From contig JABDAO010000005.1 of assembly GCA_013289095.1 (NCBI GenBank), positions 303 to 64,302 of the forward strand: 64,000 bases of DNA, written 5' to 3'. The translations under genes were made by a program, and so were the position numbers. Below are positions 12,380 through 52,131 of this stretch, one piece after another. The first letter of the stretch is position 1. Every line of letters starts with the position of its first letter. Source of the stretch: Bacteroidota bacterium (lineage in GTDB: Bacteria; Bacteroidota; Bacteroidia; Palsa-965). The notes under the pieces are model-generated. The model ran no database searches. It worked only from the letters and a program-made list of their open reading frames with translations, and was not told the DNA's origin.

Positions 12380-13362
12380 GGAAGGGAATTTAACGCATGA
12401 ACAGATTATAACAGAAGTAGATTCCGGGATTCCGGGTCTGTCGAAAAACAAATGAAGAGGGGACTAGCAAGGGATTTAGTCGTGCAGGAAGTTTTTTTCC
12501 TTACCCTGTATTGACTCTGCACACCCGTTAGGGGTGTCGAGCAACTGCTGAATCTGTAGCGTGGCATACAATGCGCTGCTACATTTCAAATTTACAAAAG
12601 ATTATATATATAATATATTTCAAAAGCGAAATAATTGTTAAGGTTGCAGGATCGTGTCTTTTGAATGTTATTTTGCCGCGCCCGACTCCACGATCATGCG
12701 CAGACTTTGCAGTTGTAACTGGTTCATCTGCTTAGAGGTTCCCTCCGTTCATCCTCTGATAGTGATAATCAGAAAGGATCAAAACAAGCTGATTTGTAGT
12801 TGTGAACACCAAAAGAAAAGGGAGCTGAAATACAAGGAACGTCTGTTGTTGGAAGAAGGAGGATTTAACCGAATTTGAATCATTTTTTTTTAGCGATAGA
12901 AACATCCTGAGTTGCTTGCATTTATCCCAGATTTCAAGACGTTCGAAAAGTAGAATCAAATTGCTAACTTTCGCTTGAACAACAAGCAAAGCCTATGCAT
13001 AAAATGGTGATTTCGATCCCTTCCCAGATTTTGGCTGAAATGTAAAAGTCTTGTTTAATCAAGACCTTTGAAGAATCAATTGGTGACTCCAGTAAAATGG
13101 AGATCCCGTATGGAATAATTATTGATCTAAAAGTACATTTCCTTGTTGTTTCATTTTTAGTCACTGTTCCGTAAATAGCGGCGCGGAGATAACTCTCCTC
13201 TCTAAATTCTTAAAGGGATAGGTTTTTTGTTGCCCAATCTCAATAAAAACAACGCTTTCATACAATATCGTCACGCTATGCTGATAATGACACACCATCT
13301 TCAGTATCCAACAATCAAATTATCAATGACTTAGAACAAGTTAGATGGAATTCTGCATTAGA

Positions 13363-13501
13363 TGGCTTGTGCGCTAATGCACAGTGTGTTAGGGTTTGCG
13401 CAGTCCCGATAGTCATCGGGATGGGTTATCCCGCGGGTTCGTTGTGCTGCTGGCCTTTTGAGCGCGAATGCCTGCTTCGAATGTATTCATATGCGGGATA
13501 A
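13363..13501. repeat. dispersed palindromic element, copy A (long form)
   Basis: tggcttgtgcgctaatgc...cccgatagtcatcggg...TTATCCCGC-[57 nt]-GCGGGATAA. By my hand alignment it differs from copy B (20881-21058) at about 8 positions over about 104 nt. The outer 9-bp arms are perfectly complementary. Confidence 0.8.
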
Positions 13502-13837
13502 AACAGGTTACTGCCCGGAAAATGACTTTGACCCAAGGTCTTTCGTGCAAAAAAGACAGTAGAATACGTCTGCCCTGACTTCCCGGATGTTGGCAAGAAG
13601 GCATCCGAAAAAATGAAAGGCAGGCATCCGGCTCAAAAAGGGATTTCAATAGTCAATGTCAAAAGCCGGGGGGGAGAGATCGAATGACTGCTGCATGTTG
13701 GTCCAGCCAGAGACACGTTTGCCTGAGGTGTCTGTTTCTCCTGATGAATGTTCAGGTACTGACAAATCATGTTCAGTAGTGCTTCATGTGTCTTCCTTGT
13801 TTCCGAACCCCGATCAGTTCATTTACGTTTACGAATG

Positions 13838-14095
13838 AAGCATAATGGATCATTATGCATGCATTTCAAACCAGTATACATGCAAAAAGGATCATTATGC
13901 ATGCATTTCAAACCAGTATACATGCAAAAAGGATCATTATGCATGCATTTCAATCCATTATTCAAGAATAAAGGATCATTATGCATGCATTTTAAATCAG
14001 TATGCAAGCATTTCAATCTATTATTCAAGGATAATGGATCATTATACATGTATTTCAAGTCATTTTGCATGCATAATGGGTGGAAATGATCCAAA
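13838..14095. repeat. tandem array 1 (21/42-bp period, about 12 x 21 bp)
   Basis: The first two 42-mers (13847-13888 and 13889-13930) are identical: ggatcattatgcatgcatttcaaaccagtatacatgcaaaaa. The gcatttca motif recurs at 13868, 13910, 13952, 13994, 14015 and 14057, i.e. in steps of 21 or 42. Confidence 0.9.
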
Positions 14096-14342
14096 TTGAT
14101 TTTTTTAACGGTAATTTGATGATAATGAGTGAACCCTACATAGGTTGGATGCAGCCTGATAAAGGTTGTAAGCTGCGTTTAACAGGTGTAAGCAACCAGT
14201 CACAGTTTAGAGAATAGACCCGATTTTTTCGACAGATTTAATCCCGGAAACGGTCTGCCGTTGTATTTCCCTGATTTTCAAAGAAAGCACAAAGGAATCA
14301 GGGGTGTTGTGTTGGTGAATGTTTGGTTCGATTATCCGTCAA

Positions 14343-14378
14343 GAAAAGAGGCTGTTTCATCAGAAACAGCCTCTTTGT
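14343..14378 (-). terminator. intrinsic terminator downstream of the ABC transporter gene
   Basis: agaggctgtttc-atca-gaaacagcctct: a 12-bp perfect stem, followed on the minus strand by TTTTCTT. It lies 20 bp past the stop at 14398. Confidence 0.65.
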
Positions 14379-14397
14379 CTTGTATCAGAAATAGGTT

Positions 14398-18934: not shown

Positions 18935-19200
18935 ATCCGAAGAGGGTTAATGTTAAAAAGCGATGCAAGTAATAAATAAATAATGAGTTTTCAAAAATAG
19001 TACTTTTTTCACTACATCTTCAAAAACTTTCGCGAATGTAGGCAATTTATCCCGCATTATGCATCAGGGAGAGCCCTCGGCTCCGGGGGAGGCCTATTCG
19101 CTTCAATACAGCAGGAAGTTTGGATGATCAGCCTCGCCGATGCGACTCTTCGTCTATTTCGGGTGAAGGTGTGGGAGATTAAGAATATCTTTGAGCCACT

Positions 19201-20442: not shown

Positions 20443-20524
20443 GCTTTGAAGCCCACCCTGTATCCAGCTGGATTGCTGGTGAGCAGAGCAAGTGCTCATT
20501 CAGAATGTATCGGTTTGGAGGGGT

Positions 20525-20749
20525 CTATTTGCAATACGGATCAATGGCTTCAATACCGGCAGTATCCAGAAATTCTGTGATCTCCATATATTTAGCGCGT
20601 GCATAAGGGTCACGTGCCGGGCGTGTTTCAAATTCAAGCGCAGTCATTTGTTCAACATCCGTGCGGATTCCGAGTATCTTCCCGCTTTTGATGCTTCCAT
20701 CTTTCATGTACACGGTTGCATTATTTCCAATAATTTCGTTTGTGATCAT
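20525..20749 (-). CDS. hypothetical small protein
   Basis: 74-aa ORF with an ATG start and non-repetitive composition. No family was recognised. Confidence 0.4.
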   Translation of the reverse strand: MITNEIIGNNATVYMKDGSIKSGKILGIRTDVEQMTALEFETRPARDPYARAKYMEITEFLDTAGIEAIDPYCK

Positions 20750-20880
20750 CTCTATCCTGTTTTTTGTGGATTAACTTGAAACAAAAATAAGCCCTGGATA
20801 GGGAATCTATGTTAGGGAATTATGAAGGAAATGACAAGGGTGGTGGGAGTGATTTGGTTAAACCCAGCTTGTGCATGAGG

Positions 20881-21058
20881 TGGCTTGTGCGCTAATGCCC
20901 GTCAAGACCGGCTCAACCAGGTCTTCTGTCGGCCGGGCGGGCACCGTGTGTTAGGATTTGCGCGGCCCCCGATAGTCACCGGGATGGGTTATCCCGCGGG
21001 TTCGTTGTGCTGCTGGCCCTTTGAGCGCGAATGCCTGCTTCTAATGCATGCGGGTTTA
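20881..21058. repeat. dispersed palindromic element, copy B (long form with a 44-nt internal insertion and a degenerate right arm)
   Basis: It has the same tggcttgtgcgctaatgc start and the same TTATCCCGCgggttcgttgtgctgctggcc..gagcgcgaatgcctgcttc core as copy A. There is extra ccgtcaagaccggctcaaccaggtcttctgtcggccgggcgggc after position 18. The right arm has decayed to gcgggttta. Confidence 0.8.
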
Positions 21059-21263
21059 ATGGAGTTTCGCCCGTTAATTGTTTTAAATCACCTGAATAAC
21101 GCAGATAATTGTCAAATAACGTGAGATGGGTTGTAGAAGAGAAGGCATCAACGAACGAGGATTTTAATTTTTCGATTTTACTGGATATTACTCTATATGG
21201 AGTTAAATATCCTCTTGGATCAAATCGTATCATTTGGTGAAAATATCGGATTCCTGATTTCAT
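21059..21263 (-). pseudogene. truncated N-terminal fragment of a gene interrupted by element copy B
   Basis: The minus-strand ORF 20976-21263 starts with protein-like sequence (MIRFDPRGYLTPYRVISSKIEKLKSSFVDAFSSTTHLTLFDNYLRYSGDLKQL). It then reads straight into the repeat, ending ..EAGIRAQRASSTTNPRDNPSR, the same peptide that copy A generates. The N-terminus resembles the start of small nucleotidyltransferase-associated proteins, but this is from memory only. Confidence 0.4.
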
Positions 21264-21425
21264 TCAGTGCCTGGTTTTCATCTGAAATCATCTGAACCGA
21301 CAAACCTGCCAAGCTGTCATTGGCATCATCTTCGCTACCTCTCCCGCTCCGGATAAACTTCTGTCGAAAGATGGAACTTATAGCTGCAAATTACGTTTAC
21401 AACATAGCAAACATAGCCCCAGGTT

Positions 21426-22153: not shown

Positions 22154-22232
22154 GATTTGGGATTTACGATTTGGGATTTAAAAATGAATTCAAATTTTCG
22201 AATCCCCAATCGTAAATCCCGATTCCCAAATC
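22154..22232. repeat. long imperfect inverted repeat between the rhomboid and ABC-F genes
   Basis: The left arm gatttgggatttacgatttgggatt (22154-22178) pairs with aatccccaatcgtaaatcccgattcccaaatc (22201-22232), with a 6-7-nt bulge. The loop is taaaaatgaattcaaattttcg. It lies inside the spurious N-terminal extension of ORF 22157. Confidence 0.6.
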
Positions 22233-26424: not shown

Positions 26425-29400
26425 TTAACGGATCAGCTGAACAAAACCATCCAGTGCGTAGTTTTTTCCATCGGTTCCGGTGGCCGCAACTACCCAGTAG
26501 TATGTTCCGTCGCTGGCTTTTCCGCCGGTAAAGGTAAGCCCATCCCATCCCAGCCAAGGATGGATGATATGTGCCATCAACACTCCCCAGCGGTCATAGA
26601 TCTTCATGTCGTATGAATCGATGGCTTCCCACTTCACGTCCATGAAATCATTACGGCCGTCTCCATTCGGAGTGAACACGTTTGGAACGACAAGCGACGA
26701 TGGCCGGTCTTTGATGGTGATGATCCGTTCATAAAGGCTGTCGCATCCATGATTATCTGTCACCACTTCTGAAACAGTATAAATCCCGCCGGTGGTGTAA
26801 ACGTTGAATGTGTTTTTAGCATTCTCTGTACCGTTTCCGTCTCCGAAGCTCCAGGTCCAGTGGTTGGCATTGGGTGAGCTGTTGTCAAAGAAGAAAATGG
26901 AATCGGGGGCAACCCCGACATAACTGCTTGCGATGAAATTGGCATGCACCGAATTGTTCACCTGGGGCACTGTTACCGGAACAACAATCCGGCAGCCGTT
27001 GGCATCAAAGATAGTACAGGTGTATGTTCCAGGACCGAGGAGGTTTATCCCTACTCCGGTTCCGAAATGGGTGCTCCAGCTATAGATATAGTTTGGAACA
27101 CCGCCGGTTGTAAACACGCTTGCTGTTCCACTGTCGGAAAGACATATTGCGGGCGTGGAGCTGGGGGTACCCACGAGTTGCGGAGGTTGATTCACAACAA
27201 GTGTTTTTGTGGATACACAACCATGTGCATCGGTCACCGTGCAGGTATAGGTTTGGGCTGAAAGACCGTTTATGACAGCAGTCGTTGCACCTCCAGGGCT
27301 CCAGGAATAGGAGTAGGAAGAAGTTCCGCCAGTGACTTTTGCCGTGTCCACACCGTTCGTGTTACCGAAACAACGCAGGGTAAGCGGAGAAATCGTATCC
27401 TTTAATGCAAGCGGTTCAGAAATGAAGATAGAGGTAGTCTGAAAACAGCCATGTGCGTCGGTAACAATACAGGTATAGGTGTTCGTTGCCAAACCGCTGG
27501 CCACGCTTGATGTTCCACCGCTAGGAAGCCAGGAATACGAGTAAGAACTTGTTCCACCGGTTACCGTAACAGAATCCTTACCATTGGTCAAACCATTACA
27601 GGTGATGTCTTTGGGAATATTGTTAACAACAAGTAGAGCCGGTTGAATAATGTCGGCTACGGTGGTTCCTACACAGCCTTTTGCATCTGTAACCGTACAG
27701 GTATATGTTCCTGCGGGCAGGGCAAATGTAGTTGCACTCGTTCCTCCCGAAGGAGACCAAGAGTAACTATAAATCCCGGCGTTTCCGCCTACCCCAACGG
27801 CTGTTGCTGTTCCGTTTGTGCCTCCGTTACAGGCTACTCCCAGAGTCGTGTTGGTTGGAGCCACAACGGCTGGCTGAACAACAATGGCTGTGGTGATGGA
27901 AGTACAACCATGCGCATCTGTTACAGTACTCGTATACGTACCTGCTGCAAGACCTGTAGCGCTGGGAGAGTTTCCTCCTGCACCCGACCAGGAATAAGTA
28001 TAATTCTGTACACCGCCTGTTGGAGTAACCAGGGCTGCTCCGTTTGCTTGTCCGTAACAAATCGTAGAAATGGTGGTATCTACTGTTGCAAAAAGCGGAG
28101 GTTGGGTGATGTTCAGGTTGATCGTGCCCGGGCAGCCATTGGTATCGGCAATGGCGCAGGTATAGTTGCCTGCGGGCATTGCGGTACCGGTTGATGTATT
28201 TCCTCCATGCGGTGACCAGGTATAGGTATAACCCGGATGGCCTCCCGATGTAGTCAGAACGGCGCTACCTGTGCTCTGACCAAAACAGTTCACGTTGGTG
28301 ATCACCGCAGTGGCTGTGACTTTGGTTGGCTGATGAATGGTGTCGGTAACACTGGTCTGGCAATGGCTTGCATCCGTAACCGTGCTGATATAAACCCCGG
28401 CAGGAAGGTTGATGATGGTAGTATCAGTAGGTGTTGTTGGAGTTCCCGAAGGCGACCAGGAATAGGTGAGTGCTCCCGTTCCTCCGCTTCCTAAACAGGT
28501 AGCGTTACCGTTGGTGCCTCCAAAACAAAGAACCTGATGTGAATGCAGGATCGTGTCCTTAGGGCCTCCTGTGTTTGAAACAGCAATAGAGGAGATTTGA
28601 GTACAGCCATTCGAATCTTTTACCGTTACGGTGTATATGCCTGCTGCCACACCACCGGTAGAGTCAACAGAACTTACAAGCGGAAGCGGGCTCCAGGAAT
28701 AGGTATAGCTTCCGGTACCTCCGCTTGGTGTAATGGTTGCATCACCGGTATGGCCAAGACACGGTGTCGGGCGGCTGGCAGATGCGAGTACAAGCAAAGG
28801 AGGTTGTTTTACAAGGGCGATGGAGGTGGACACACAGTTGTGATTATCGGTCACTGTTACTGTATAAGTTCCTGCAGGAACCCCGGTAATCTTTGAGGTG
28901 GTTCCGGTATTGGGAGACCAGAGGTAGGAGTATGTTTTAGATCCTCCGGTTACAAATACCGTGTCAGAACCGGTACTGTCGCCATGACATTTGGTGCGTG
29001 TGGCAAGGTTGGTTACAACCAGCGGGTTGGGTTGACGGATGGTGTCGATGGTGGTAGTTGTACAACCATTGCGGTCGGTCACGGTACAGGTATAGATACC
29101 TGCGCTCAGACCTGCTGCGGTGGCTCCGTTTCCTCCGCTTGGAACCCAGGAGTAAGCATAAGCAGGTGTACCACCCGATGGAATGGCTTTGCCTGATCCG
29201 TTATTGCCTCCGTTACACGAAGTAGAATCTTGTGTATGGATAGCCTTCAGTATAGGGGGCTCTGGAACACGGATCGTATCTTTCGAAACGCAACCATGAC
29301 CGCTGGTAACAGTTACCGTATATAAGGTAAGCGGTATCAAGCCTGTTGCTGTATCGTGACCCTGTCCTCCGCCGGGGGGAGGCGACCAACTATAACTATA

Positions 29401-30735
29401 AGGCCCTGTCGAAGCCGTCACATTTACACTGGCGCTTCCGTTGTGAAGCCCAAAACAGCTTGAAGGAGCGCCGGTTCCGTTCAACACCGGAAGCGGGGTA
29501 AAGGTGATGGTGGTATCGAGTGCATACGAACAATGAGCTCCACCGGCATAGGTGATTACTACTTCGTAAGTCCCGTTTTGGTTTACTACAACTTGCTGCG
29601 TATTTGTCGGACCTACGATACCTGTTGTGCCCGAAGGCAGGGTTTGCCACTGATACGTACTGCCACCCGAACTGGCCGGGGCTGTAAGCGTATCGGTTCC
29701 TCCTGCACATACCTTGGGCGATCCGGTGATCTGACTCAAGATAGATCCACAGGCAGCATCCACATATGCATAACAGAAGTGACCTCCCAGGGTGCAACCG
29801 GCAGCGGTAAAACGAATGATGATTGAATGGCCCAGATATTGAGTCAGACTGATCGAGTTTGAAGTCCATGGACAATAAAATACAGGGTTACCCTGTGTAT
29901 CCTGTGAGCCGGAAACAAGGAACCCGGGAGGCACATCTCCCAATGAATCTTCTTCTACATAATACTGCTGACAAGGGTTGGTTGGGTTACCTGCCGAATC
30001 GAGAACCTGTACCCTGAAGTAAGGCTGTTCGCCGGATGTGTGGGTGATCTGGTCCATCACGATCGAATATTTATACGTAAACAGGGCATTGCTGTTTGTA
30101 ACCACAAACGACTCTTGAATAAATTCTGCGCCGCTTTCGTTTCCTCCCGAAGGATCCGGATTATTACAAGCACCTCCGTTTGAATTGGCTCCAACGTTGA
30201 CGTGTTCTCCTCCAAGACGGACCGAATACGTATTCCCGCTTGGACATACAACCGGCTGCCCGGAGTAGGCATCAAGCTGCGGGAGCATAGAGGTATTCAC
30301 CAGGGTGTGAAAAGAACAGGAAGTTTCAGGCGAGTTTATTCCTGACGAAGTGATCGTTGGGGTTGCAACGGTGATCGGGCCGGTAGAGTTGCCGTTACAT
30401 CCGATTGCGCCCGTCCAGCCGGTAAACGTACCAGCCGAAAAATCGACGTTTGTACAGGGCGCTGTCAGGACTGTTGGTACGCCAGCGTATGGATGACGGG
30501 ATACCGGCGGGTTCAGATTGTATTTGGTCATCATAAACTTTCGCTCATGCTGCTTCACGAAAGCAACAAGTTCATAGCCATGGAGCTGTTTCCGAAAGGC
30601 TTCCCGTTGACAGGCGCCGATGTCGAAGCCTTGAAGCGTGTCGCCCCGGTAAAAGGTGAGTGAGCTCAGGTTCTGACCTAATCCCAGGAAACAACTCAAT
30701 ACGAGAGCGCTAAAAGCGAGGAGTTTTTTATTCAT
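26425..30735 (-). CDS. giant T9SS-secreted adhesin with 11 SprB-type repeats, a PKD domain and a type-B (gliding-motility) C-terminal sorting domain
   Basis: 1436 aa. Signal peptide MNKKLLAFSALVLSCFLGLGQ. There are 11 units of the pattern CxGxxxGxxxxxxxGGxxxYxYxWxP...AGxYTxTVTDxxGC. A PKD-like FGDGNGTENAKNTFNVYTTGGIYTV region follows. The C-terminus VPNVFTPNGDGRNDF...YDRWG is typical of the type-B CTD. Confidence 0.9.
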   Translation of the reverse strand: MNKKLLAFSALVLSCFLGLGQNLSSLTFYRGDTLQGFDIGACQREAFRKQLHGYELVAFVKQHERKFMMTKYNLNPPVSRHPYAGVPTVLTAPCTNVDFSAGTFTGWTGAIGCNGNSTGPITVATPTITSSGINSPETSCSFHTLVNTSMLPQLDAYSGQPVVCPSGNTYSVRLGGEHVNVGANSNGGACNNPDPSGGNESGAEFIQESFVVTNSNALFTYKYSIVMDQITHTSGEQPYFRVQVLDSAGNPTNPCQQYYVEEDSLGDVPPGFLVSGSQDTQGNPVFYCPWTSNSISLTQYLGHSIIIRFTAAGCTLGGHFCYAYVDAACGSILSQITGSPKVCAGGTDTLTAPASSGGSTYQWQTLPSGTTGIVGPTNTQQVVVNQNGTYEVVITYAGGAHCSYALDTTITFTPLPVLNGTGAPSSCFGLHNGSASVNVTASTGPYSYSWSPPPGGGQGHDTATGLIPLTLYTVTVTSGHGCVSKDTIRVPEPPILKAIHTQDSTSCNGGNNGSGKAIPSGGTPAYAYSWVPSGGNGATAAGLSAGIYTCTVTDRNGCTTTTIDTIRQPNPLVVTNLATRTKCHGDSTGSDTVFVTGGSKTYSYLWSPNTGTTSKITGVPAGTYTVTVTDNHNCVSTSIALVKQPPLLVLASASRPTPCLGHTGDATITPSGGTGSYTYSWSPLPLVSSVDSTGGVAAGIYTVTVKDSNGCTQISSIAVSNTGGPKDTILHSHQVLCFGGTNGNATCLGSGGTGALTYSWSPSGTPTTPTDTTIINLPAGVYISTVTDASHCQTSVTDTIHQPTKVTATAVITNVNCFGQSTGSAVLTTSGGHPGYTYTWSPHGGNTSTGTAMPAGNYTCAIADTNGCPGTINLNITQPPLFATVDTTISTICYGQANGAALVTPTGGVQNYTYSWSGAGGNSPSATGLAAGTYTSTVTDAHGCTSITTAIVVQPAVVAPTNTTLGVACNGGTNGTATAVGVGGNAGIYSYSWSPSGGTSATTFALPAGTYTCTVTDAKGCVGTTVADIIQPALLVVNNIPKDITCNGLTNGKDSVTVTGGTSSYSYSWLPSGGTSSVASGLATNTYTCIVTDAHGCFQTTSIFISEPLALKDTISPLTLRCFGNTNGVDTAKVTGGTSSYSYSWSPGGATTAVINGLSAQTYTCTVTDAHGCVSTKTLVVNQPPQLVGTPSSTPAICLSDSGTASVFTTGGVPNYIYSWSTHFGTGVGINLLGPGTYTCTIFDANGCRIVVPVTVPQVNNSVHANFIASSYVGVAPDSIFFFDNSSPNANHWTWSFGDGNGTENAKNTFNVYTTGGIYTVSEVVTDNHGCDSLYERIITIKDRPSSLVVPNVFTPNGDGRNDFMDVKWEAIDSYDMKIYDRWGVLMAHIIHPWLGWDGLTFTGGKASDGTYYWVVAATGTDGKNYALDGFVQLIR

Positions 30736-31247
30736 ACGGTCCTAAAATAAGAATGTCTGTACACTGTTCATTATAAAATAACTTCTTTTTGTCTGACCGG
30801 TTCCGTGTGTCTGGCAACAGGTTTGAGTAAAAGGGCCCGAGGTGGGATTGCGAATTTAGAATAATAAACTGAAAGAGCACCAAAACAGCGTTTAATTTTT
30901 CGATGCCTATATGGCTGACTGTTAGCCACTGACATCCGGATCTGGATCCTGAAACCGATTCCTTTTTTCGTGTAAATATTTGATAGTTAGTTGTTTGAAT
31001 GAAACCCCAGCCCCCTGTTTTTGCTTGTCTGGAAGAAAAATTCCAGCATCATTATAGATATCAGACCGCATTGCAAGAAAAACTACCCGAAAACGAAGAT
31101 CCCCGCAGCATTCCATGCCCCTATTTAATCACCCCGGTTTTTCAAAAAGCCCTCAGCATGACAGGCGCCGAAACTCTTTTCTCGATTCCGGTCATACTCA
31201 ACGCTCGTTTTGTCAGCTGGAAGGGTTTCTTTTTATAATTTTGAAAG

Positions 31248-31538
31248 ATGTCGAAACACAATGAACAAAGTCTGAAAGAGGTGCTCGCCGAAATGCTGGA
31301 TGCTTACAAGCTACGCGGAAGGATGGAAGAGTTGAAGCTCATGTCGTCGTGGGGGGCCATTATGGGGCCGATGATACAAAAACGGACTGTCGACATCAGC
31401 ATCCGGAACAAAATCTTGTATGTTAGGCTTGAATCTGCTGCTTTGAGAGAAGAACTATCCTACAGCAAGGAAAAACTCATTCAACGTTTAAACGAGGAAG
31501 CCGGTTCTGAAGTGGTTTTGCAAGTAGTATTTATCTGA
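31248..31538 (+). CDS. DUF721/DciA-like small protein
   Basis: 96 aa. It matches the pattern LKEVL..ML..Y.L......L...W..I.G......T.......L.V...S...R.EL......L...LN. The family assignment is from memory. Confidence 0.75.
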   Translation: MSKHNEQSLKEVLAEMLDAYKLRGRMEELKLMSSWGAIMGPMIQKRTVDISIRNKILYVRLESAALREELSYSKEKLIQRLNEEAGSEVVLQVVFI

Positions 31539-31548
31539 CTTTCGGCCT

Positions 31549-32463
31549 ATGTACCGCTTTCGCTGCATTTGGTGCTTTGTGTTGGTAATTCTTTCCAGGA
31601 GTGTCTTGGCCCAGCCCCAGATGAACAACACCGAGCGGGCCAATTTTCAGAAAAACCATCTTTTGTCAACTTCGGCCTACGCCCTGAAATTAAACCGAGG
31701 CATCGATAAGCATACCTTTCTGGAGCAACGCACCAGTTACGACATCCAGGGAAATATTTCTTCCATCACCCAATATGATTCCACCGATCTGGAGATGTTG
31801 AAATGGACCTGTGCCTACAATGCAAATAATCAACTGATCTCCCGCTCGTTTTGCATCTACCGCGATACCATTGCCAAGACTACGGTGACCTATACCGAAA
31901 AAGGATTTCCATCCGAAGAAACAACCGAAAACGCCGATGGTGTCACACTCTTGAAATTTGTCTATGTCTGCGATGCCAAAGGAAAGATACGCAAGGCAAC
32001 CGAAGATATTTTTCCCGAAAGCAAAGAGTATGTACGTCAGGCATACCGGTTCGACCAGCAGGGTTTCCTGCTCCTGCGTTTTCTGGGGGAAGCAAAAGGA
32101 CGGGCAAGGATCAATTATTCGTACGACTACACAAAGACCGGTCTGCTAAGCAGGATGACTGAAATCGGGCAGGACACCATCCCCTTTGGATGGGTTGAAT
32201 TTGAATATACGAAAGACGGGGCCCTCCGAAGTTTCAGCGTGAAACACGAAAACGGCAAACGTTACCGGATTTTTACCAACTACGATTCGCATGGTGGGCT
32301 CAAGGAGCAATTCAAAAGCCTTTATCTCAATACCGTACTCCTCGATCAGGAGAAAGACGAGTATACCGTCGATTCAAAAGGACTCGTGAAAAAACGGCTC
32401 CGCTATAAGTTCAACAACGAACTGTTCATGTTATATAACTTTACCCATGAGTTTTATGAGTAA
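31549..32463 (+). CDS. hypothetical secreted protein
   Basis: 304 aa with the signal-like N-terminus MYRFRCIWCFVLVILSRSVLAQ. No family was recognised. Confidence 0.6.
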   Translation: MYRFRCIWCFVLVILSRSVLAQPQMNNTERANFQKNHLLSTSAYALKLNRGIDKHTFLEQRTSYDIQGNISSITQYDSTDLEMLKWTCAYNANNQLISRSFCIYRDTIAKTTVTYTEKGFPSEETTENADGVTLLKFVYVCDAKGKIRKATEDIFPESKEYVRQAYRFDQQGFLLLRFLGEAKGRARINYSYDYTKTGLLSRMTEIGQDTIPFGWVEFEYTKDGALRSFSVKHENGKRYRIFTNYDSHGGLKEQFKSLYLNTVLLDQEKDEYTVDSKGLVKKRLRYKFNNELFMLYNFTHEFYE

Positions 32464-32510
32464 CGGCCAGATCTGCCTGAAAAGCCATTAACCTCTTTTC
32501 ATTTCCAAAC

Positions 32511-32540
32511 AAAAAGCTGCCTATTTGGGCAGCTTTTTTG
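32511..32540. terminator. bidirectional intrinsic terminator between convergent genes
   Basis: aaaaagctgcc-tatttg-ggcagctttttt: a 7-bp GC-containing stem flanked by an A-run and a T-run. It lies between the stop at 32463 (+) and the ndk stop at 32608 (-). Confidence 0.65.
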
Positions 32541-32607
32541 TTTGAAGGAAGATTTTATAAAACGAGATCTTCGTAGCTTATTTTATTCCAATACTGCGGG
32601 GCCTTGA

Positions 32608-33027
32608 TTAAAAACGTTCAGAACCTGCAAAAAAGAAATTTCCTTCGGCATCGGCATTTTCATCGCTGTCTGAACCATGTACGGCATTGGCAGCAATCGA
32701 TTTTGCAAACAAATTACGGATGGTGCCTGGTTCGGCCTTGGCCGGATCGGTAGCTCCGATGAGTTTACGGAAATCGGCCACGGCATTGTCTTTTTCAAGA
32801 ATAGCAGCCACAATTGCACCGGATGACATGTATTCAACCAGCTCGCCATAAAACGGACGGGCTTTGTGTACTTCGTAAAATTTACCTGCTGCTTCGGGGC
32901 TTAGTTTGGTATATTTCATGGCAACTATGCGAAAACCTGCTTCGTTGATCTTGGCCAGGATTGGGCCGATATAATTGTTTCCGACTGCGTCGGGTTTAAT
33001 CATTGTAAACGTTCTGTTGGTTGCCAT
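32608..33027 (-). CDS. ndk: nucleoside-diphosphate kinase
   Basis: I prefer the ATG at 33027 ([15 protein letters not shown]). It has the active-site NAVHGSDS motif. 139 aa. Confidence 0.93.
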
Positions 33028-33209
33028 TTTATATTCTGTTTTTTTGTGTTTTTGCAAATTTCGCTCCCGATCCGGAAGAACGGCGCGAAATTAAGAAAAA
33101 TATCGGGATACATTTTATCTTCAGGTCTTCGAAGCGGAAAAAGCAATCTGCTTTCCTGAAAAGGAGGATGCTTCATGCCAATCGTGCTGTATTTTAGTTG
33201 ATTGCAGGC

Positions 33210-33535
33210 TTGTTGAAATGGCTTGGATTGAAAATAATGCACGTTTTGTCAAAATGATCCCTTAATTCATGCAAAATGAGTTGAATTGAATCTATACTGG
33301 ATTGAAACGTGTTGATATTGGATGGAAATGTATTCATTCTGATTCTTTATGCATGCAAAATGAGTTAAAATGAATGCATCTTGAACTGAAATGAATGCAT
33401 AATGGATTGAAATGTATGCATAATGGATTGAAACTACCAGATAAAGGTTTGAAATGAATTGATATTGGATTGAAATCAATTCAAACTGGATTGAAATGAA
33501 TAAAAAATGATTTAAAATGAAGATAATGGGATTTT
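33210..33535. repeat. tandem array 3 (21-bp period, about 13-15 units), homologous to array 1 but in reverse orientation
   Basis: The motif (t)tgaaa(t/c) ends at 33266, 33287, 33308, 33329, 33350, 33371, 33392, 33413, 33434, 33455, 33476, 33497 and 33518, exactly 21 bp apart. Units such as gcataatggattgaaatg are the reverse complement of catttcaatccattat in array 1. Confidence 0.9.
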
Positions 33536-33713
33536 TGTTGGCTGGTTTCGATTAATTCATTTGATAATCAATGAGATGCATGGTAAGCCGGTCGCCAAGC
33601 CTTCAGATTAATCCCCCATGCCGGCAGAAGAATTAGGAGCGTTTGCCTCTCCACTGAACGATGCGCCTCATAAACCCAACATGAACAGTAGAAACGTAGT
33701 GCACTACTGTTCA

Positions 33714-33816
33714 GTGCGTTTGGATTTTGTGCGCTGGATTTGGGTTATCCCGCTGCTCCTGAGAGCTGGCGGCCTTTTCAGAGCGTTAGCCAGCTTCAAC
33801 TGAAAAATGCGGGATA
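33714..33816. repeat. dispersed palindromic element, copy C (short left part, intact hairpin)
   Basis: gtgcgtttggattttgtgcgctggatttggg-TTATCCCGC-tgctcctgagAGCTGGCggccttttcagagcgttaGCCAGCTtcaactgaaaaat-GCGGGATAA. The inner 7-bp stem is perfect here, whereas copy A has a T-T mismatch at the same place. Confidence 0.75.
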
Positions 33817-33847
33817 AAGTCGTAAATTAGCCGCCTAAACCCCCTTT

Positions 33848-34867
33848 ATGAAGCCAGCTGAGTTGAAAAAATTGAAGTCAATCCTTCAAAAACCCAAGAA
33901 AATGGTGATAATCACCCATTGGTCGCCCGATGGAGATGCAATCGGCTCTTCGCTGGGGTTCTATAATTATCTGATTCAGAAAAAGCATTCCGTAACAGTC
34001 ATCACTCCCAACGATTCGCCTGCCTTTTTAGACTGGATGGCCGGAAGCAAACGCATTGTCGATTTTTCAAAAGACACCGCCAAGTCCACCAAAATACTGA
34101 ATGCGGCCGAAGTGATCTGGTGTCTCGATTTTAATTCGTTGAAACGCATTGATAAGATGGGGCCCCTGGTGGAAGCATCTGAAGCAATAAAAGTGATGAT
34201 CGATCATCATCCCCAACCCGATGATTTTGCCGATTTCAACCACCATTCGGTAAAAGCCTGCTCCACCTGTGAACTGATTTACAGTCTCATCGAGATGCTG
34301 GGCGACAAGAAAAAGATCGATAAAAAGATTGCAGAATGTTTATACACCGGCATCATGACCGATACCGGGTCGTTCCGTTACTCAAGCACTACGGCCGATA
34401 CCCACCGTACGGTAGCAGCCCTTATCGATGCAGGAGCTGATAATGGAGAAATCCATTCCAGGGTCTATAACGATTCGTCCGAAGACCGGCTCAAACTCAT
34501 CGGGTACAGCCTTTCGCAGAAAATGGTGGTCCTGAAGGAATACAATACCGGTTATATTTCGCTTACCCAGGACGAACAAACCCGTTTTAATTATAAAAAA
34601 GGAGATACCGAAGGCCTGGTAAACTATATCCTTTCTATCCGTGGAATGAAATTCGCGGCCTTCATGACCGAACGTGATGGCATCGTTAAAATGTCGTTCC
34701 GTTCGAACGGCAAGTTTGATGTCAATGCATTTGCCCGTACCCATTTTGGAGGCGGAGGCCATGTAAATGCAGCCGGAGGTTTTTCGAACGATCCCATTGC
34801 CGAGGTCATTCGTACGTTTCAGACGCTTGTGCCTGAATACAGCAAACAGCTCACAAACCCCAAATAG
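33848..34867 (+). CDS. DHH-family phosphoesterase (NrnA-like oligoribonuclease/pAp phosphatase)
   Basis: 339 aa. Motifs HWSPDGDAIGSS (DxD), MIDHHP (DHH) and DHHA1 GGGGH. Confidence 0.88.
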   Translation: MKPAELKKLKSILQKPKKMVIITHWSPDGDAIGSSLGFYNYLIQKKHSVTVITPNDSPAFLDWMAGSKRIVDFSKDTAKSTKILNAAEVIWCLDFNSLKRIDKMGPLVEASEAIKVMIDHHPQPDDFADFNHHSVKACSTCELIYSLIEMLGDKKKIDKKIAECLYTGIMTDTGSFRYSSTTADTHRTVAALIDAGADNGEIHSRVYNDSSEDRLKLIGYSLSQKMVVLKEYNTGYISLTQDEQTRFNYKKGDTEGLVNYILSIRGMKFAAFMTERDGIVKMSFRSNGKFDVNAFARTHFGGGGHVNAAGGFSNDPIAEVIRTFQTLVPEYSKQLTNPK

Positions 34868-34930: not shown

Positions 34931-35482
34931 ATGATCAATACACTCATTTCTTTTTCTGCCAAATATATACATGCAGGCATAGGCATGGCCCTGCTGTTCT
35001 TTTATGGCTGTGGAAATACGAATGAACATCAACTTCATCCACAAAAAAATTATACCAGGGAACAACTCCTCTCCGCCAATAAAACCGATAGCCGGCGCGA
35101 ATCGGATGATATTGATGCCTATCTCGCAGTTCACCACCTGCAGATGACCGGGAGTGGAACCGGTTTGCGTTACCACTTTATGACGCACAGCACAACCGGC
35201 GATTCGGTAAAAGCAGGCAACTATGCTAAGGTGGCCTACTCGGTGTCTTTGCTCGATGGTACGCTTTGTTACTCGTCTGACAAAGACGGGCCCAAGGAAT
35301 TCAGGGTTGGCGAGGATCATGTAGAATCGGGAATACATGAAATGGCCTTGCTGATGAAGACGGGCGACAAAGTGCGTTTCATTCTTCCCTCCAATCTTGC
35401 CCATGGTTTGCTTGGCGATGGGGATAAAATACCGCCCCGGGCGCCGGTATTGTATGAAATGGAACTTCTGGGTTTGAGATAA
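34931..35482 (+). CDS. FKBP-type peptidyl-prolyl cis-trans isomerase (lipoprotein-like)
   Basis: 183 aa. N-terminus ALLFFYGCGNT and the C-terminal FKBP signature GDKVRFILPSNLAHGLLGDGDKIPPRAPVLYEMELL. The start may instead be the ATG at 34985. Confidence 0.8.
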   Translation: MINTLISFSAKYIHAGIGMALLFFYGCGNTNEHQLHPQKNYTREQLLSANKTDSRRESDDIDAYLAVHHLQMTGSGTGLRYHFMTHSTTGDSVKAGNYAKVAYSVSLLDGTLCYSSDKDGPKEFRVGEDHVESGIHEMALLMKTGDKVRFILPSNLAHGLLGDGDKIPPRAPVLYEMELLGLR

Positions 35483-35539
35483 GGAGGCTGTTTGATATTT
35501 TATTTCAATTAGAATAGTGTTTACCACTAAAGAACACAC

Positions 35540-36352
35540 ATGAAAAAGGGAATTGTCATTTTTTTTCTGTCCACTGTCATTCTCGCCGCCTGTGGAGAGA
35601 AACGCATGCCTGGTTTCAGACGGCTCAGCAATGGCAGTTATTTCAAACTGATGGCCCTGGGCGAAAGCGACCGCAAACCAAGGGAAGGAGAATATCTGGA
35701 GATGGTCATTCTCAACACATTTGCCGACTCGGTATTGTACAACTCCCGCCTGGAGAGTTCCCGCGGAACCATGATCACTCCTTATAACGATAAAGATGGC
35801 TTTGCCAAGCTGCACGAAGGCGACAGCGCAGATTTTCTGATCCCGGCTTACGACCTCATGCCGTATGGCAATGATACCATGATGCACATGCATGTAAAGC
35901 TGGTGCATATTTTCGATGAAAAACAGTACAAGGCCGAATCCGAAAAACGGGCCCATGTCGATGAAATGGATGAGCAGAAAATACTCAGCTACTTTCTAAA
36001 AACCAGCAAGGTGAAATACGAGGAACTGGGCAAAGGCCTCTATTATTCGGAAGAAATAAAAGGAAAAGGAAAAAGTGTGGAACGGGGCGACCGGGTGCTT
36101 GTCAACTACCAGGGTACTTTTTTGAACGGTAAGAAATTTGATGTCACGGCCGAGCCTGTTGAATATACCCTGGGCGATGAAGGCCAGTTAATAGAAGGGA
36201 TGGCCCTGGCCCTGGCTCATATGCGCGAAGGCGGGAAAGCAAAAATTATTATACCTTCGCACCTTGCTTACGGGGCCGAAGGATCAAGTACCGGGATTAT
36301 TAAGCCTTTTACCTCGATTCAATACAAGATTGAATTGGTGAAAGTAAATTAG
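35540..36352 (+). CDS. FKBP-type peptidyl-prolyl cis-trans isomerase
   Basis: 270 aa. Lipobox-like VILAACG. The C-terminal FKBP domain reads VNYQGTFLNGKKFD...LIEGMALALAHMREGGKAKIIIPSHLAYG. Confidence 0.85.
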   Translation: MKKGIVIFFLSTVILAACGEKRMPGFRRLSNGSYFKLMALGESDRKPREGEYLEMVILNTFADSVLYNSRLESSRGTMITPYNDKDGFAKLHEGDSADFLIPAYDLMPYGNDTMMHMHVKLVHIFDEKQYKAESEKRAHVDEMDEQKILSYFLKTSKVKYEELGKGLYYSEEIKGKGKSVERGDRVLVNYQGTFLNGKKFDVTAEPVEYTLGDEGQLIEGMALALAHMREGGKAKIIIPSHLAYGAEGSSTGIIKPFTSIQYKIELVKVN

Positions 36353-36450
36353 CGATACCCTCCTGTTTGTATCGCGGTCTATACCCTCGGAGGGCTATGA
36401 CCGGTGAACTATTTCAACCTAGAACTAAAATAAAAAAAGAGAACCAGTAC

Positions 36451-37338
36451 ATGAAAAAGAGAAACACCAACATCCTGATTGCTGCCTGTATCGGCACTGC
36501 GTTTATTGCCTGTCACAAACCCGAACACCCCGGTTTCGAAAAATCAGCCAGCGGTCTGTTCTATAAAGAATACCTCAAAGGAAAAGATACGCTTCACCCT
36601 CATGTCGGCGACCGCGTTACCCTGCAGATCGTTTGTAAAACCGAAAAAGACTGTACCCTGATCGATACCCGTAAAGGCAATGGCCATCTTCCGCTGGTAC
36701 TTCGTAAAAGCGTTTACCCGAACGATGTGTTCGAAGCCATCGCAACGATGCATGCCGGAGACAGCACCGGGTTCCTGCTCAATGCCAAAGACTATTTCGA
36801 AAAGCTCGAACGCATGAAACCGCCTGCATTTATTGATTCTATGAGTATGCTGCATTTTACCGTCAAGATCGATAAGATAGAGCCCAAGACCATTGTTGAG
36901 GCGGAACAGAAAAAACACATGGAAGAACAACAGAAAGCCGCGGCTGCAGCAAAAGAGGAAGAACCTGGCCTGCTCGAAAAATACCTGGCCGATAATAAAA
37001 TCAAGGCCAAACCAACCAAGACAGGTATGTATATCATTGAAACCGAAAAAGGGAAAGGCGATGCCATCAAAGCCGGACAAACCCTGCAGGTTAAATACAC
37101 AGGCAAATTCATAGACGGGCAGGTGTTCGACTCTTCAGAAAACAGCGGCAAACCGTTTGAATTCCAGGTCGGCAAACAACAGGTCATCCCGGGATGGGAC
37201 GAGGCTCTCCTGACCATGAAAAAAGGCGGTAAAGCCAATCTGATCATTCCTTCTTCGCTTGCCTATGGTGATGGTGGAGGCCGGATGAAACCCTATGCCA
37301 CACTTTTGTTTGATATTGAAATTGTAGATGTAAAGTAG
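36451..37338 (+). CDS. FKBP-type peptidyl-prolyl cis-trans isomerase
   Basis: I prefer the ATG at 36451 (MKKRNTNILIAACIGTAFIAC). FKBP domain: VKYTGKFIDGQVFDSS..FEFQVGKQQVIPGWDEALLTMKKGGKANLIIPSSLAYG. Confidence 0.88.
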   Translation: MKKRNTNILIAACIGTAFIACHKPEHPGFEKSASGLFYKEYLKGKDTLHPHVGDRVTLQIVCKTEKDCTLIDTRKGNGHLPLVLRKSVYPNDVFEAIATMHAGDSTGFLLNAKDYFEKLERMKPPAFIDSMSMLHFTVKIDKIEPKTIVEAEQKKHMEEQQKAAAAAKEEEPGLLEKYLADNKIKAKPTKTGMYIIETEKGKGDAIKAGQTLQVKYTGKFIDGQVFDSSENSGKPFEFQVGKQQVIPGWDEALLTMKKGGKANLIIPSSLAYGDGGGRMKPYATLLFDIEIVDVK

Positions 37339-37382
37339 AACAATCCCAAACCAAACCCTTTGTTCTTTCTACCCGATAACCA

Positions 37383-38231
37383 ATGAAAAAAAACGCATCC
37401 ATCGTGTTTGTTGTTGCACTGGGTCTGCTCGTCAGTTGTACGATCCTGCATAAAAACACACCTTGTAAACCAACGATAGTGAAAAAACCAGAAAAACTAA
37501 GCACCACATCCGGTCTTCAGTATACCATCACCACCCGTGGTTGTGGCGCCCAGGCTCATGCCGGCGATCAGGTGAAGGTGCATTATACCGGCAAGCTGAC
37601 CAACGATACCGTATTCGACAGTTCGGTGGCACGCAATCAGCCTTTTGAATTCAAACTCGGCAAACGACAGGTTATTGCCGGATGGGACGAAGGCATTGCG
37701 CTCCTTCATGTCGGCGATAAGGCCACCTTCGTTATCCCCCCGGCGCTTGGCTATGGTGCACGAGGCATGGGCAAGATCCCGGCCAACAGCACCCTCATTT
37801 TTGATGTTGAATTGCTCGAACTCAAAGAAGGGATCCGGAAAGCCAATACAACCGGAAAGGATACGGTGACTACCCCCGACGGACTGAAAATTATTTTTTT
37901 ATCAGACCGCAAACTCCCGGAATTTGCTCCTGCAAACACGGCCAACAAACCTGTAAATGGGAACAAAGTAAAAGTGCATTATTCTGGTTTCCTCCTCGAT
38001 GGAAGTTTATTTGATTCTTCGGTCGAACGCGGACAACCCTTTGAATTTACATTGGGCCAGGGCATGGTCATCAAAGGATGGGACCTTGGTATAGCCATGC
38101 TCCACAAAGGCGAAAAAGCACAGCTCATCCTTCCCTACACCCTGGCCTATGGCGAACGTGGACACCCACCAATCATCCCTGCCAAAGCAACACTGGTGTT
38201 CGATGTGGAGCTCATAGACATTACACCCTGA
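37383..38231 (+). CDS. tandem-domain FKBP-type peptidyl-prolyl cis-trans isomerase
   Basis: 282 aa with two complete FKBP domains (VHYTGKLTNDTVFDSS..VIAGWDEGIALLHVGDKATFVIPPALGYG and VHYSGFLLDGSLFDSS..VIKGWDLGIAMLHKGEKAQLILPYTLAYG). Confidence 0.88.
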   Translation: MKKNASIVFVVALGLLVSCTILHKNTPCKPTIVKKPEKLSTTSGLQYTITTRGCGAQAHAGDQVKVHYTGKLTNDTVFDSSVARNQPFEFKLGKRQVIAGWDEGIALLHVGDKATFVIPPALGYGARGMGKIPANSTLIFDVELLELKEGIRKANTTGKDTVTTPDGLKIIFLSDRKLPEFAPANTANKPVNGNKVKVHYSGFLLDGSLFDSSVERGQPFEFTLGQGMVIKGWDLGIAMLHKGEKAQLILPYTLAYGERGHPPIIPAKATLVFDVELIDITP

Positions 38232-50207: not shown

Positions 50208-50669
50208 ATGAAAACGACACAACTTAAGGACTTTACTGGAGAGAATATCTATGTAGGGTTCGATGTTCACAAATCAAGCTGGAAAGTGACTATAGGGCAT
50301 CTCTAATAACCCCTTCCAAACATTCCCTCTTCTTGGGAGAGGGTCAGGGAGAGGTCAAGAAAACGGGGTTATTAGAGATGCCCTATATTAACAGACCATG
50401 CATCTCACAAGAATTATGCACAGGAACCCTCTGTTGAAAAGCTAGTCAACTATTTACAAACTAATTTTGCAGGAGGCACCTATCTTAGCGCTTAGGGGGC
50501 AGGTTTCTGTGGATTCTGGATACACCGGGAATTAAGCAAAAATGGTGTTAATTCGATTATAGTTAGCCCCGCTGATATTCCAACAACACAAAAGGAACAA
50601 GTGAAAAAGGAAGACAAGCGAGACAGCAATAAAATTGCGAAGGCACTTCGCAACGGCGACCTCAAGGGC
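50208..50669 (+). pseudogene. IS110-family (DEDD) transposase, decayed N-terminal remnant
   Basis: MKTTQLKDFTGENIYVGFDVHKSSWKVTI | 97-bp insertion | LTDHASHKNY..GGTYLSA*GAGFCGFWIHREL..IVSPADIPTTQKEQVKKEDKRDSNKIAKALRNGDLKGIY. There is an in-frame stop, and the reading frame ends exactly at the left arm of element copy D. The C-terminal two-thirds of the protein is absent. Confidence 0.75.
50291..50387. mobile_element. 97-bp MITE-like palindromic insertion inside the IS110 transposase remnant
   Basis: Perfect 23-bp terminal inverted repeats, tatagggcatctctaataacccc and ggggttattagagatgccctata, flank 51 bp with an internal ccctct..agaggg hairpin. It splits the conserved KVTI|L region of the transposase. 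Confidence 0.65.
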
Positions 50670-50745
50670 ATTTATCCCGCATTATTCATTCGGAATTGGC
50701 CTTTTGTGCGCGAATGCCTGCTTCTACTGCATAATGCGGGATTAG
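50670..50745. repeat. dispersed palindromic element, copy D (hairpin core only)
   Basis: tTTATCCCGCATTATtcattcggaattggccttttgtgcgcgaatgcctgcttctactgcATAATGCGGGATtag. The arms extend to 12-13 bp, and the inner ggccttttg.gcgcgaatgcctgcttc block is shared with copies A and B. Confidence 0.8.
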
Positions 50746-50929
50746 CCTGTTACACGGCTAATGCAAAATTCCGGTTTATTGGGCCAATGCCTTTTCATGT
50801 AACTGGAGACATTTCCGAACGGTATCGATATAAATGGCACAAATTGTCCTGCCGGAGAAGTTAGTTGTCCTGAAAGAGACCTTTGTTGTTCGGAGGTGCT
50901 GCCTTTAAAAGGCAGCTCATTCCCTGGGG

Positions 50930-51500
50930 TTCCCGACTGTTCCCTTAGTTTCCCGACACGTTCCCCAAGCTTCCCGACATGTTCCCCAAGCTTCCCGACA
51001 CGTTTACTAAGGTTCCCGACACGTTCCCCAAGCTTCCCGACATGTTCCCCAAGCTTCCCGACACGTTTACTAAGCTTCCCGACATGTTCCCCAAGCTTCC
51101 CGACATGTTCCCTTAGGTTCCCGACATGTTTGCTAAGCTTCCCGACATGTTCCCTTAGATTCCCGACATGTTTGCTAAGCTTCCCGACACGTTTACTAAG
51201 CTTCCCGACATGTTTGCTAAGCTTCCCGACACGTTTACTAAGCTTCCCGACATGTTCCCTTAGTTTCCCGACATGTTTGCTAAGCTTCCCGACATGTTTG
51301 CTAAGCTTCCCGACACGTTTACTAAGCTTCCCGACATGTTCCCTTAGATTCCCGACACGTTCCCTTAGGTTCCCGACATGTTCCCTAAGGTTCCCGACAC
51401 GTTCCCTTAGGTTCCCGACATGTTCCCTAAGGTTCCCGACACGTTCCCCAAGGTTCCCGACATGTTCCCCAGGGTTCCCGACACGTTCCCCGAGGTTCCT
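50930..51500. repeat. tandem array 4 (about 27 x 21 bp, unit TTCCCGACAYGTTNNNNWAGN)
   Basis: tcccgac starts at 50951, 50972 ... 51434, 51455, 51476, i.e. in exact 21-bp steps. There are four main unit variants (..cacgttccccaagc, ..catgttcccttagg, ..catgtttgctaagc, ..cacgtttactaagc). The first unit is 20 bp. Confidence 0.92.
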
Positions 51501-52131
51501 TATCGAGAGTCTGTTCAATAAAAGGATTTGGAGATGCTATTGAAAGCATTTTCCCGGAGAAGTTTGTTGTCCTGGCGGAGAAGATAGATGTCCTCCCGGA
51601 GGAGACCATGGTTGTCCTGCGTTTCTGCTGTTCATTTTGGGATTATATGCACTAATTCTTTTCCCCCGCTTTATCACCCCATACTCCCAAACTGATATTG
51701 GCCATATTATGGGGATAGTAATTCCAGATTCTTTAGTCCACCTTAGCAACATCAAAGAAAAAAAGAACGCATGATAGAGGGCTTTAAAAAGAGTCAGTCA
51801 CTCCAATCATACCCGTTTACAGGCATGCCACAGCCTTATTTGTTGAATACGTTTCGATTAATTTAGCTTTCATTTTTTTTAATTCCTACTAGGATTTGAT
51901 ATTTTTTGTGTTTATCTTGTCATCAGAAAAGACAAATACCTGGGCTTAAGTCTAAGCATACCCGTTCTACAGGCATACAATCCGTTCGTCCCCGTTTTCT
52001 TTTTTAAACAGTGTTTTTGTAGCATGGCGTACATTCTCTCTGTGATTGCGCACACCTCACAGACCGGAATGAAGTAGCGTACCCAATCCTTCAACTGTTT
52101 TACACACATTAACACACAAAACCAAAACCAC

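Follow-up and report, generated by a model that had tools for sequence, protein, structure and literature searches.

Non-coding repeat DNA, probably a lineage-specific insertion, in the long ndk–nrnA intergenic region of a Bacteroidota genome

We analysed 64,000 nucleotides of contig JABDAO010000005.1 from a Bacteroidota bacterium (assembly GCA_013289095.1; hereafter the window) with a focus on the divergent intergenic region between ndk and an nrnA-like gene for a DHH/DHHA1 phosphoesterase. [quoted passage not shown] Overall, the inserted block looks like ordinary selfish or neutral repeat DNA and not like a new regulatory device. The abnormal length of the intergenic region would then be explained without new regulation, both conserved promoter-proximal blocks having survived, and the locus would provide a clean filled-site/empty-site example of a repeat insertion in an uncultured Bacteroidia lineage.

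The gap from the ndk start (33027, minus strand) to the upstream ATG of the DHH gene (33848) measures 820 bp, as a preliminary description of this DNA had stated. The same description considered the gap almost filled by the array and the element, which was an overestimate: together they occupy only ~480 of the 820 bp. The rest is unique sequence: ~173–176 bp next to ndk, ~132 bp separating the array from the element and 29–30 bp next to the DHH gene. The gap and the genes on either side are laid out as follows.

32608..33027, minus strand: ndk coding sequence, 139 amino acids, ATG at 33027; an identical product has Pfam NDK, and the start is the same in relatives
33085..33109, minus strand: conserved ndk-proximal block GCGAAATTAAGAAAAATATCGGGAT, outside the repeats and kept in the related contigs L002, L004, L138 and L139
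33204..33539, plus strand: array 3, a degenerate 21-bp minisatellite of ~15 units with an in-phase core at 33246–33518, consensus GaATgcATAaTGgaTTGAAAT and 26–34% G+C (~45% for the window)
33540..33671, no strand assigned: unique spacer between array and element, without a homologue at other loci or in relatives (Smith-Waterman against shuffles; blastn)
33672..33744, plus strand: module M1 of copy C, with hairpin arms ACAGTAG (33685–33691) and CTACTGT (33704–33710)
33745..33817, plus strand: module M2 of copy C, 73 nucleotides, with inverted ends TTATCCCGC (33745–33753) and GCGGGATAA (33809–33817) and core GGCCTTTTCAGAGCGTTAGCCAGCTTC
33819..33847, plus strand: conserved nrnA-proximal block, aligned with four relatives, with a -7-type box TAAATTAG at 33823–33830 and a short leader
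33848..34867, plus strand: DHH/DHHA1 phosphoesterase gene, NrnA-like, 339 amino acids; in relatives the start codon corresponds to 33848

As the preliminary description had proposed, we compared the region with related genomes, and this revealed the insertion. In five contigs from four related organisms, whose DHH proteins are 69–76% identical to that of the window, the synteny is kept (DciA, a 304-amino-acid gene, ndk, then the divergent DHH and FKBP genes), and the ndk–DHH gaps of 207, 207, 199, 212 and 145 bp contain neither the array nor the element. The sequence is therefore not a conserved region shared by these relatives, and their short gaps identify the block as a lineage-specific insertion of ~620 bp. 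The unique stretches 33028–~33200 (~173 bp) and 33819–33847 (29 bp) sum to the ancestral gap length, so that the inserted block would start with the first array unit (~33200) and stop where M2 has its 3' end (33817/33818).

All relatives compared conserve GCGAAATTAAnAAAAA on the ndk side (window 33085–33109) and GTAA(A/T)TT(A/T)G some 18–20 nucleotides before the DHH ATG (window GTAAATTAG, 33822–33830). Judged by its conservation and position, GCGAAATTAAGAAAAATATCGGGAT is probably part of the ndk promoter or leader, and the nrnA-proximal box TAAATTAG would act as a promoter element. The L138 version of this box, TAAATTTG, fits the Bacteroidetes -7 consensus, which we take to be TAnnTTTG; an exact TAnnTTTG has no match within 33028–33847, and a sigma-70-type scan gave signals at chance level only. 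The insertion lies between, not on, the putative promoter-proximal sequences of ndk and nrnA, and the element end has taken the place only of sequence 5' of the -7 box of nrnA. Since conserved blocks (GCGAAATTAAnAAAAA and GTAAATTAG) flank the insertion on either side, the earlier suggestion that promoters of both genes must operate from within or across the repeats is mostly unsupported.

Homologues of the window DHH/DHHA1 protein at no more than 68% identity are named NrnA and come from 'Bacteroidia bacterium'. The public call of this gene (P0001, 321 amino acids) begins at 33902, 18 codons 3' of the ATG used by all relatives (MKPAELKK...), and this start is probably mis-called.

Array 3 is clearly periodic. 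Over 33204–33539, base identity at a lag of 21 is 0.59, whereas shuffles give 0.298 ± 0.025 (z = 11.8); a half-period signal at lags 10 and 11 is weaker (0.39 against a baseline of 0.30), and Tandem Repeats Finder reported a 21-bp array at 33349–33529 (8.7 copies, 72% matches) together with an 84-bp super-period from 33261. It had been claimed that the motif TTGAAAT ends at 13 positions exactly 21 bp apart. We confirmed the 13 in-phase registers, which end at 33266 + 21k up to 33518, but the motif is exact at only 4 of the 13 ends, carries one mismatch at 7 and is unrecognisable at 2; two out-of-phase units carry the array leftward to ~33204. We also confirmed that array 3 is the inverted homologue of array 1: it is the reverse complement of the array at 13821–14093, with arms of 100 nucleotides at 71% and 77 nucleotides at 78% complementarity. 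Arrays 1 and 3 both mix two unit types, ...TGGATTGAAAT and ...TGATCCwTTAT, and have in common the consensus GCATGCATAATGGATTGAAAT as well as the best-conserved unit positions (ATG and TTGAAAT). The type-b units form a 7-5-7 palindrome, GCATAAT-N5-ATTATGC. The window holds two further arrays.

13821..14093, minus strand: array 1, homologous to array 3 but oppositely oriented, with a 42-bp super-period alternating two unit types
50930..51490, no strand assigned: array 4, 27 units of 21 bp, unit TTCCCGACATGTTCCCTAAGC, 86% matches, unrelated in sequence to arrays 1 and 3 and adjoining an M2 copy

A second 21-bp repeat, TGTCCTGsCGGAGAAGwTAGw, forms short runs on both sides of array 4 (50846–50890 and 51552–51605). 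The minus strand of array 4 would read as VGKLxEH-type heptads in a 258-amino-acid open reading frame (ORF) absent from the public protein collection.

A phase that is exact over 13 registers, the 10/11-bp sub-period, the conserved positions common to arrays 1 and 3, the palindromic type-b units and the AT-rich composition would all suit tandem binding sites for a transcription factor, a nucleoid-associated protein or a centromere- or iteron-like system that organises or regulates the locus and possibly acts on the element, toward which the array is directed at both loci. We nevertheless consider such a role decidedly unlikely. None of the relatives has the array at this locus, so that control of ndk or nrnA does not require it; no gene for a Rep, Par or regulator protein adjoins any array, and the units are strongly decayed (72% matches); moreover, similar arrays in other Bacteroidota adjoin unrelated genes, and no switch in GC skew suggests an origin. 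On the interpretation as an insertion of repeat DNA, array 3 would be an old, decayed 21-bp minisatellite of a small dispersed family, of which array 1 is the other member in the window, and such arrays would gain and lose units through slipped-strand mispairing or unequal recombination.

The element at the other end of the insertion is modular. Module M1, with a hairpin, is present in copies A, B and C, and module M2 in copies A, B, C and D; M2 comprises 73–76 nucleotides between TTATCCCGC and GCGGGATAA, with a conserved 27-nucleotide core and variable arms. The element pattern TTATCCCGC-N17-GGCCYTTTSNGNGCG had four matches in the window, all on the plus strand (13426, 20989, 33745 and 50672), against 0 expected. 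Copy C thus has the same orientation as copy A although array 3 is inverted relative to array 1, so that, as had been noted, inverting locus 1 (array 1 with copy A) would not produce locus 3. The position first given for copy C, 33714–33816, agrees with the pattern and with nhmmer matches (33738–33823, E = 1.6e-22; 33682–33823, E = 1.6e-36), but the element begins further left: homology to A and B reaches ~33682, and a limit of ~33672 is set solely by TAAACCCA, a block common only to copy B. The remaining copies in the window are listed here.

13351..13501, plus strand: copy A (M1 and M2), ~320 bp from array 1
20869..21058, plus strand: copy B (M1 with a 44-nucleotide insert; M2 with a mutated 3' end), no array nearby
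50672..50744, plus strand: copy D (M2 only; inverted ends of 14–15 nucleotides), ~190 bp from array 4
19040..19077, plus strand: fragment E, a solo 5' arm of M2, 38 nucleotides, 76% identical to D

Copies A and B are 92–97% identical within unrelated flanks, while copy C is ~73% identical to both. The inverted ends of M2 were confirmed in A, C and D, and the reading frames differ between copies, as for MITEs. TA flanks M2 on both sides in A and C only; the right flank of D is TTA, and B carries a mutated 3' end. Fragment E lies within ~100 nucleotides that are missing from two relatives. We propose that M1 and M2 form a MITE- or REP-type module that a transposase acting in trans, or recombination, would have spread; as no further copy was retrieved, we infer this mobility from the identity of A and B and from assembly breaks.

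Copy D starts exactly where the truncated pseudogene of a putative IS110-type transposase N-terminus (50208–50680), recognised by eye in the translated sequence, ends. This pseudogene is split by a different palindrome of 107 bp (50286–50392; 28-nucleotide arms, 93% complementary) and has one more in-frame stop.

The preliminary description also held that copy C supports a real secondary structure. Its inner stem AGCTGGC/GCCAGCT (33764–33770 and 33789–33795) is indeed perfect, but it is specific to C, pairing in only 64% of cells over the four copies, and 365 of 500 column shuffles reach the score of the whole M2 structure. The outer stem of M2 never covaries and is invariant, as terminal inverted repeats would be. 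M1–M2 could still be the gene of a small structured RNA or a cis-acting RNA element, with the array as a regulatory or processed region up- or downstream of it. The only covariation found, two compensatory pairs in the M1 hairpin (GCATTAG/CTAATGC in A versus ACAGTAG/CTACTGT in C), would fit, as would the alternative M1 hairpin followed by a T-rich run in copy C, the M2 core kept while the arms vary and the location of every copy on the same strand. However, the M1 score, obtained from 3 sequences only, is reached by 52 of 500 shuffles, folding z-scores of the element are ordinary (+0.4 to -2.7) and inner M2 pairing differs from copy to copy. Copy D has no M1, that of copy B carries the 44-nucleotide insert, and no homologue was found in the collections searched. 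We rejected a known structured RNA, as no Rfam 15 covariance model matched any element copy at the gathering threshold or at E up to 10; two tRNAs alone pass in the window. An RNA function is thus very unlikely.

Repeats often mis-assemble, and 21 bp correspond to 7 codons, so the periodic DNA might be a mis-assembly or part of a heptad-repeat protein gene; among the matches listed from a scan of genome collections (see below), some 21-bp arrays do encode LKEDVSG-type heptads. Both possibilities are largely refuted and can be given next to no weight. The Logan assembly of SRR8422484 is identical to window positions 27608–33699 (contig SRR8422484_311, 0 mismatches), including the whole of array 3, and so the period is kept in a second assembly, although both may use the same reads. 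A coding repeat was rejected since the consensus unit has stops in all three plus frames and arrays 1 and 3 are not open in the same frames. Array 3 contains no called gene, and none of 10 repeat-spanning ORFs occurs in the protein collection; folding of the array strand is ordinary as well (DNA z-score of -0.10 versus shuffles). Contig breaks in the Logan assembly do, however, coincide with the element and with arrays 1 and 4: there is a break at 33700–33788 inside copy C, with another contig resuming at 33789, and further contig ends lie at 14101 (edge of array 1), 20934 (inside copy B) and 51591 (edge of array 4). With four mapped contig ends falling on them, these repeats evidently break short-read assemblies. 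As the identity of copy C to A and B is only ~73%, the break inside it suggests that the genome holds a more similar copy of this element elsewhere.

Several observations weigh against the interpretation as mere repeat DNA. For the element, no transposase, parent insertion sequence (IS) or clear target-site duplication was found, and only 4–5 copies are known, all within one 64-kb window, no other copy having been retrieved. The unit positions of the array are unevenly conserved (0.1–2.0 bits), which selection on a binding motif could explain. All three arrays of the window sit 130–340 bp from an M2 copy, and at loci 1 and 3 the array, read along its TTGAAATG strand, runs toward the element; this closeness and polarity hint at a functional or mechanistic link that pure junk would not predict. 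Finally, the edges of the insertion carry a repeat, GTATTTTAG (33189–33197) and GTAAATTAG (33822–33830), whose placement fits the distances expected for the ancestral gap; since the two sequences agree at only 7 of 9 positions, it is at most a possible target duplication and may be due to chance.

The closeness of arrays and M2 copies and the possible 9-nucleotide direct repeat could also mean that array, spacer and M1–M2 entered the gap in a single event, as a composite non-autonomous unit with the array at one end and the inverted end of M2 at the other, for which the BrickBuilt repeats discussed below provide a precedent. The edges of the insertion, at the first degenerate array unit (~33204) and the 3' end of M2 (33817), with the remainder equal to the ancestral gap, agree with this. 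However, loci 1, 3 and 4 share nothing outside the arrays and M1–M2, their spacers and outer flanks being no more similar than shuffles (blastn; Smith-Waterman). Array and element are oriented differently to each other at loci 1 and 3, the unit of array 4 is unrelated, copy B has no array, and no inverted repeat pairs an array edge with an M2 end. A single composite insertion therefore appears unlikely, though it deserves some consideration. We retain the insertion of dispersed, non-coding repeat DNA as the probable explanation, tolerated probably because it is nearly neutral. At most, it would replace the region 5' of the nrnA -7 box and add ~270 bp of AT-rich DNA in which a half-period signal is weakly present.

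Elsewhere in the window, repeats lie at breakpoints of synteny. Two closer relatives (L135 and L136; ABC transporter 90% identical) keep RlmL, a 298-amino-acid gene, a 144-amino-acid gene and the ABC transporter, and they diverge from the window past both ends of this block, exactly at array 1 with copy A and at copy B. Neither the element nor any array occurs in the 46 kb of these two relatives or in the other fetched loci. The breakpoint stretches lie at 12452–14397 and 20443–21425 of the window; the former (1.9 kb) has no convincing ORF and no similarity to L135 or L136.

Searches in other genomes recovered arrays and not the element. The exact M2 pattern had no match in GTDB species genomes and JGI metagenomes (the source genome is not among them), and a looser pattern of the M2 core gave 6 chance matches there, on high-GC contigs. 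In viral contigs there were 2 chance matches to the element and none to the array-unit pattern; blastn of the whole insertion against plasmids and phages found nothing, and neither did a chimeric query of all element reading frames against the protein database. Scanning the genome collections with a single pattern, three TTGAAA/GGNTTGAAA motifs at 21-bp spacing, gave at least 120 loci in many phyla. The shared GGNTTGAAA is imposed by this pattern and is therefore no evidence of homology or common descent. Among the Bacteroidota matches listed, most are intergenic arrays of 3–16 units whose neighbouring genes are unrelated (cytochrome b561, DNA methylase, an NADH dehydrogenase subunit, TamB and others), and several genomes among the matches listed hold 21-bp arrays at several loci. 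In the Chitinophagaceae genome JR-MC-I-240519-158, two arrays (L025, 6031–6282; L035, 6482–6663) are 93% identical and inverted within unrelated flanks, and in Bacteroidales RGIG6215 (L051/L081/L093) the array moves with 120–250 bp of flank (blastn). No M1–M2 element was found near arrays among the matches listed.

Two further cases were noted in the scan. In Hormoscilla (L032/L120 and other loci), the array flanks ACCGGTGCC... and ...GGCAACCGTT resemble inverted ends by eye. In Prevotella (L023, L024, L121 and L127), 3–5 copies of TTGAAAYGAYCGTATCATGGC are followed by ATGATACGA and a T-run; these units recur in different species and at two loci of one genome, and 16 of 21 positions match the window unit, 8 of them forced by the search pattern.

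No description of these dispersed intergenic 21-bp arrays was found in the literature searched. On a bolder view, array and palindromic element would be one undescribed unit, a mobile or recombination-prone module whose 21-bp arrays, always directed toward the element, offer multimeric sites for a trans-acting protein (a recombinase, transposase or partition-like factor) and belong to a wider, unrecognised class of such arrays in Bacteroidota; we regard this as improbable. If it is true that dispersed 21-bp arrays are common in Bacteroidota, as the single pattern scan hints, they could serve as variable-number tandem repeat markers for strain typing, and a systematic census of them, rather than the ndk–nrnA locus, would be the interesting result.

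Other repeats of the window are of different kinds. A 32-nucleotide inverted repeat at 22154–22225 (84% complementary, 8-nucleotide loop), built from two copies of GATTTGGGATTTAC, lies where a rhomboid-domain gene meets the following ORF and probably represents a terminator-like hairpin. In-frame coding repeats at 27217–29113 (228-bp spacing, in a 1436-amino-acid SprB/PKD/CHU_C protein) and at 55082–56584 (147-bp spacing, in an 814-amino-acid ORF) are domain repeats unrelated to the ndk–nrnA insertion. Four FKBP-type peptidyl-prolyl isomerase genes lie in a row 3' of nrnA (34931–38231) and are kept in all relatives fetched; their paralogy gives rise to repeat family D8 of the window.

Among known systems, array 3 may be compared with iteron- and centromere-like arrays such as plasmid iterons, parC of R1 and sopC of F, with which it shares direct repeats of about two helical turns, a sub-period of ~10.5 bp and a divergent promoter region. 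It differs in lacking rep and par genes, in its chromosomal housekeeping context, in the presence of three arrays in 64 kb, in its decayed units and in its absence from relatives. An iteron origin or partition centromere was rejected given the neighbours of the arrays (ndk, nrnA, ABC transporter, DAHP synthase and a peptidase) and this absence. A replication origin, prompted by the gene-strand switch at ~33 kb and the nearby dciA, was likewise rejected, as GC skew does not change sign and the relatives have no array. The array is no CRISPR either: there are no spacers, repeat fills the entire 21-bp period, both halves of the 42-bp period of array 1 are themselves repeated, a CRISPR-DR7 match scored 15.9 bits against a gathering score of 37, and no cas genes occur among the flanking ORFs scanned.

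The element resembles the small palindromic intergenic repeats and MITEs known as Correia/NEMIS (Neisseria), ERIC, RUP and REP/BIME in general features. Like these, M2 is short (73–76 nucleotides) and non-coding, has inverted ends of 9–15 nucleotides with TA on both sides in A and C, and is multi-copy, intergenic, located just 5' of a promoter box and assembled from mosaic modules. Unlike these, it has no parent IS, RAYT gene or proven target duplication and carries the extra M1 hairpin module, and its copy number comes from one 64-kb window. For the arrays, those of Chitinophagaceae and RGIG6215 are similar in period, intergenic position, unrelated neighbours and several loci per genome, and the Chitinophagaceae pair consists of inverted homologous arrays with unrelated flanks, as do arrays 1 and 3; their unit sequences differ, however, and no M1–M2 is nearby.

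The closest likeness in architecture is to BrickBuilt of Porphyromonas gingivalis, an always-intergenic 23-nucleotide minisatellite inside a MITE (Klein et al. 2015, PMC4596501), whose arrays are framed by a conserved leader and tail with IS5-type inverted ends GAGACCTTTGCA (PMC4596501). BrickBuilt (with MITEPgRS/MITE464) and the repeats described here belong to the same phylum, lie in intergenic regions beside housekeeping genes, consist of imperfect spacerless tandem units of 21–23 nucleotides in 1–23 copies, and occur as several dispersed copies per genome, some beside IS remnants, that are species-restricted with no matches elsewhere. The window arrays accordingly have imperfect, spacerless units of ~20–23 nucleotides at several dispersed intergenic sites. 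They differ in the length of the unit (21 versus 23 nucleotides) and in that the palindromic element is a separate module, which also occurs without an array (copy B). In addition, arrays 1 and 3 (and 4) have no shared leader or tail, their flanks scoring no higher than shuffles, and the IS5-type end GAGACCTTTGCA had 3 matches at up to 2 mismatches compared to 5.9 expected, none at an array boundary. Membership of BrickBuilt was rejected for lack of a leader or tail and of IS5-type ends; the ndk–nrnA locus is one that works like the BrickBuilt kind without being a member of that family.

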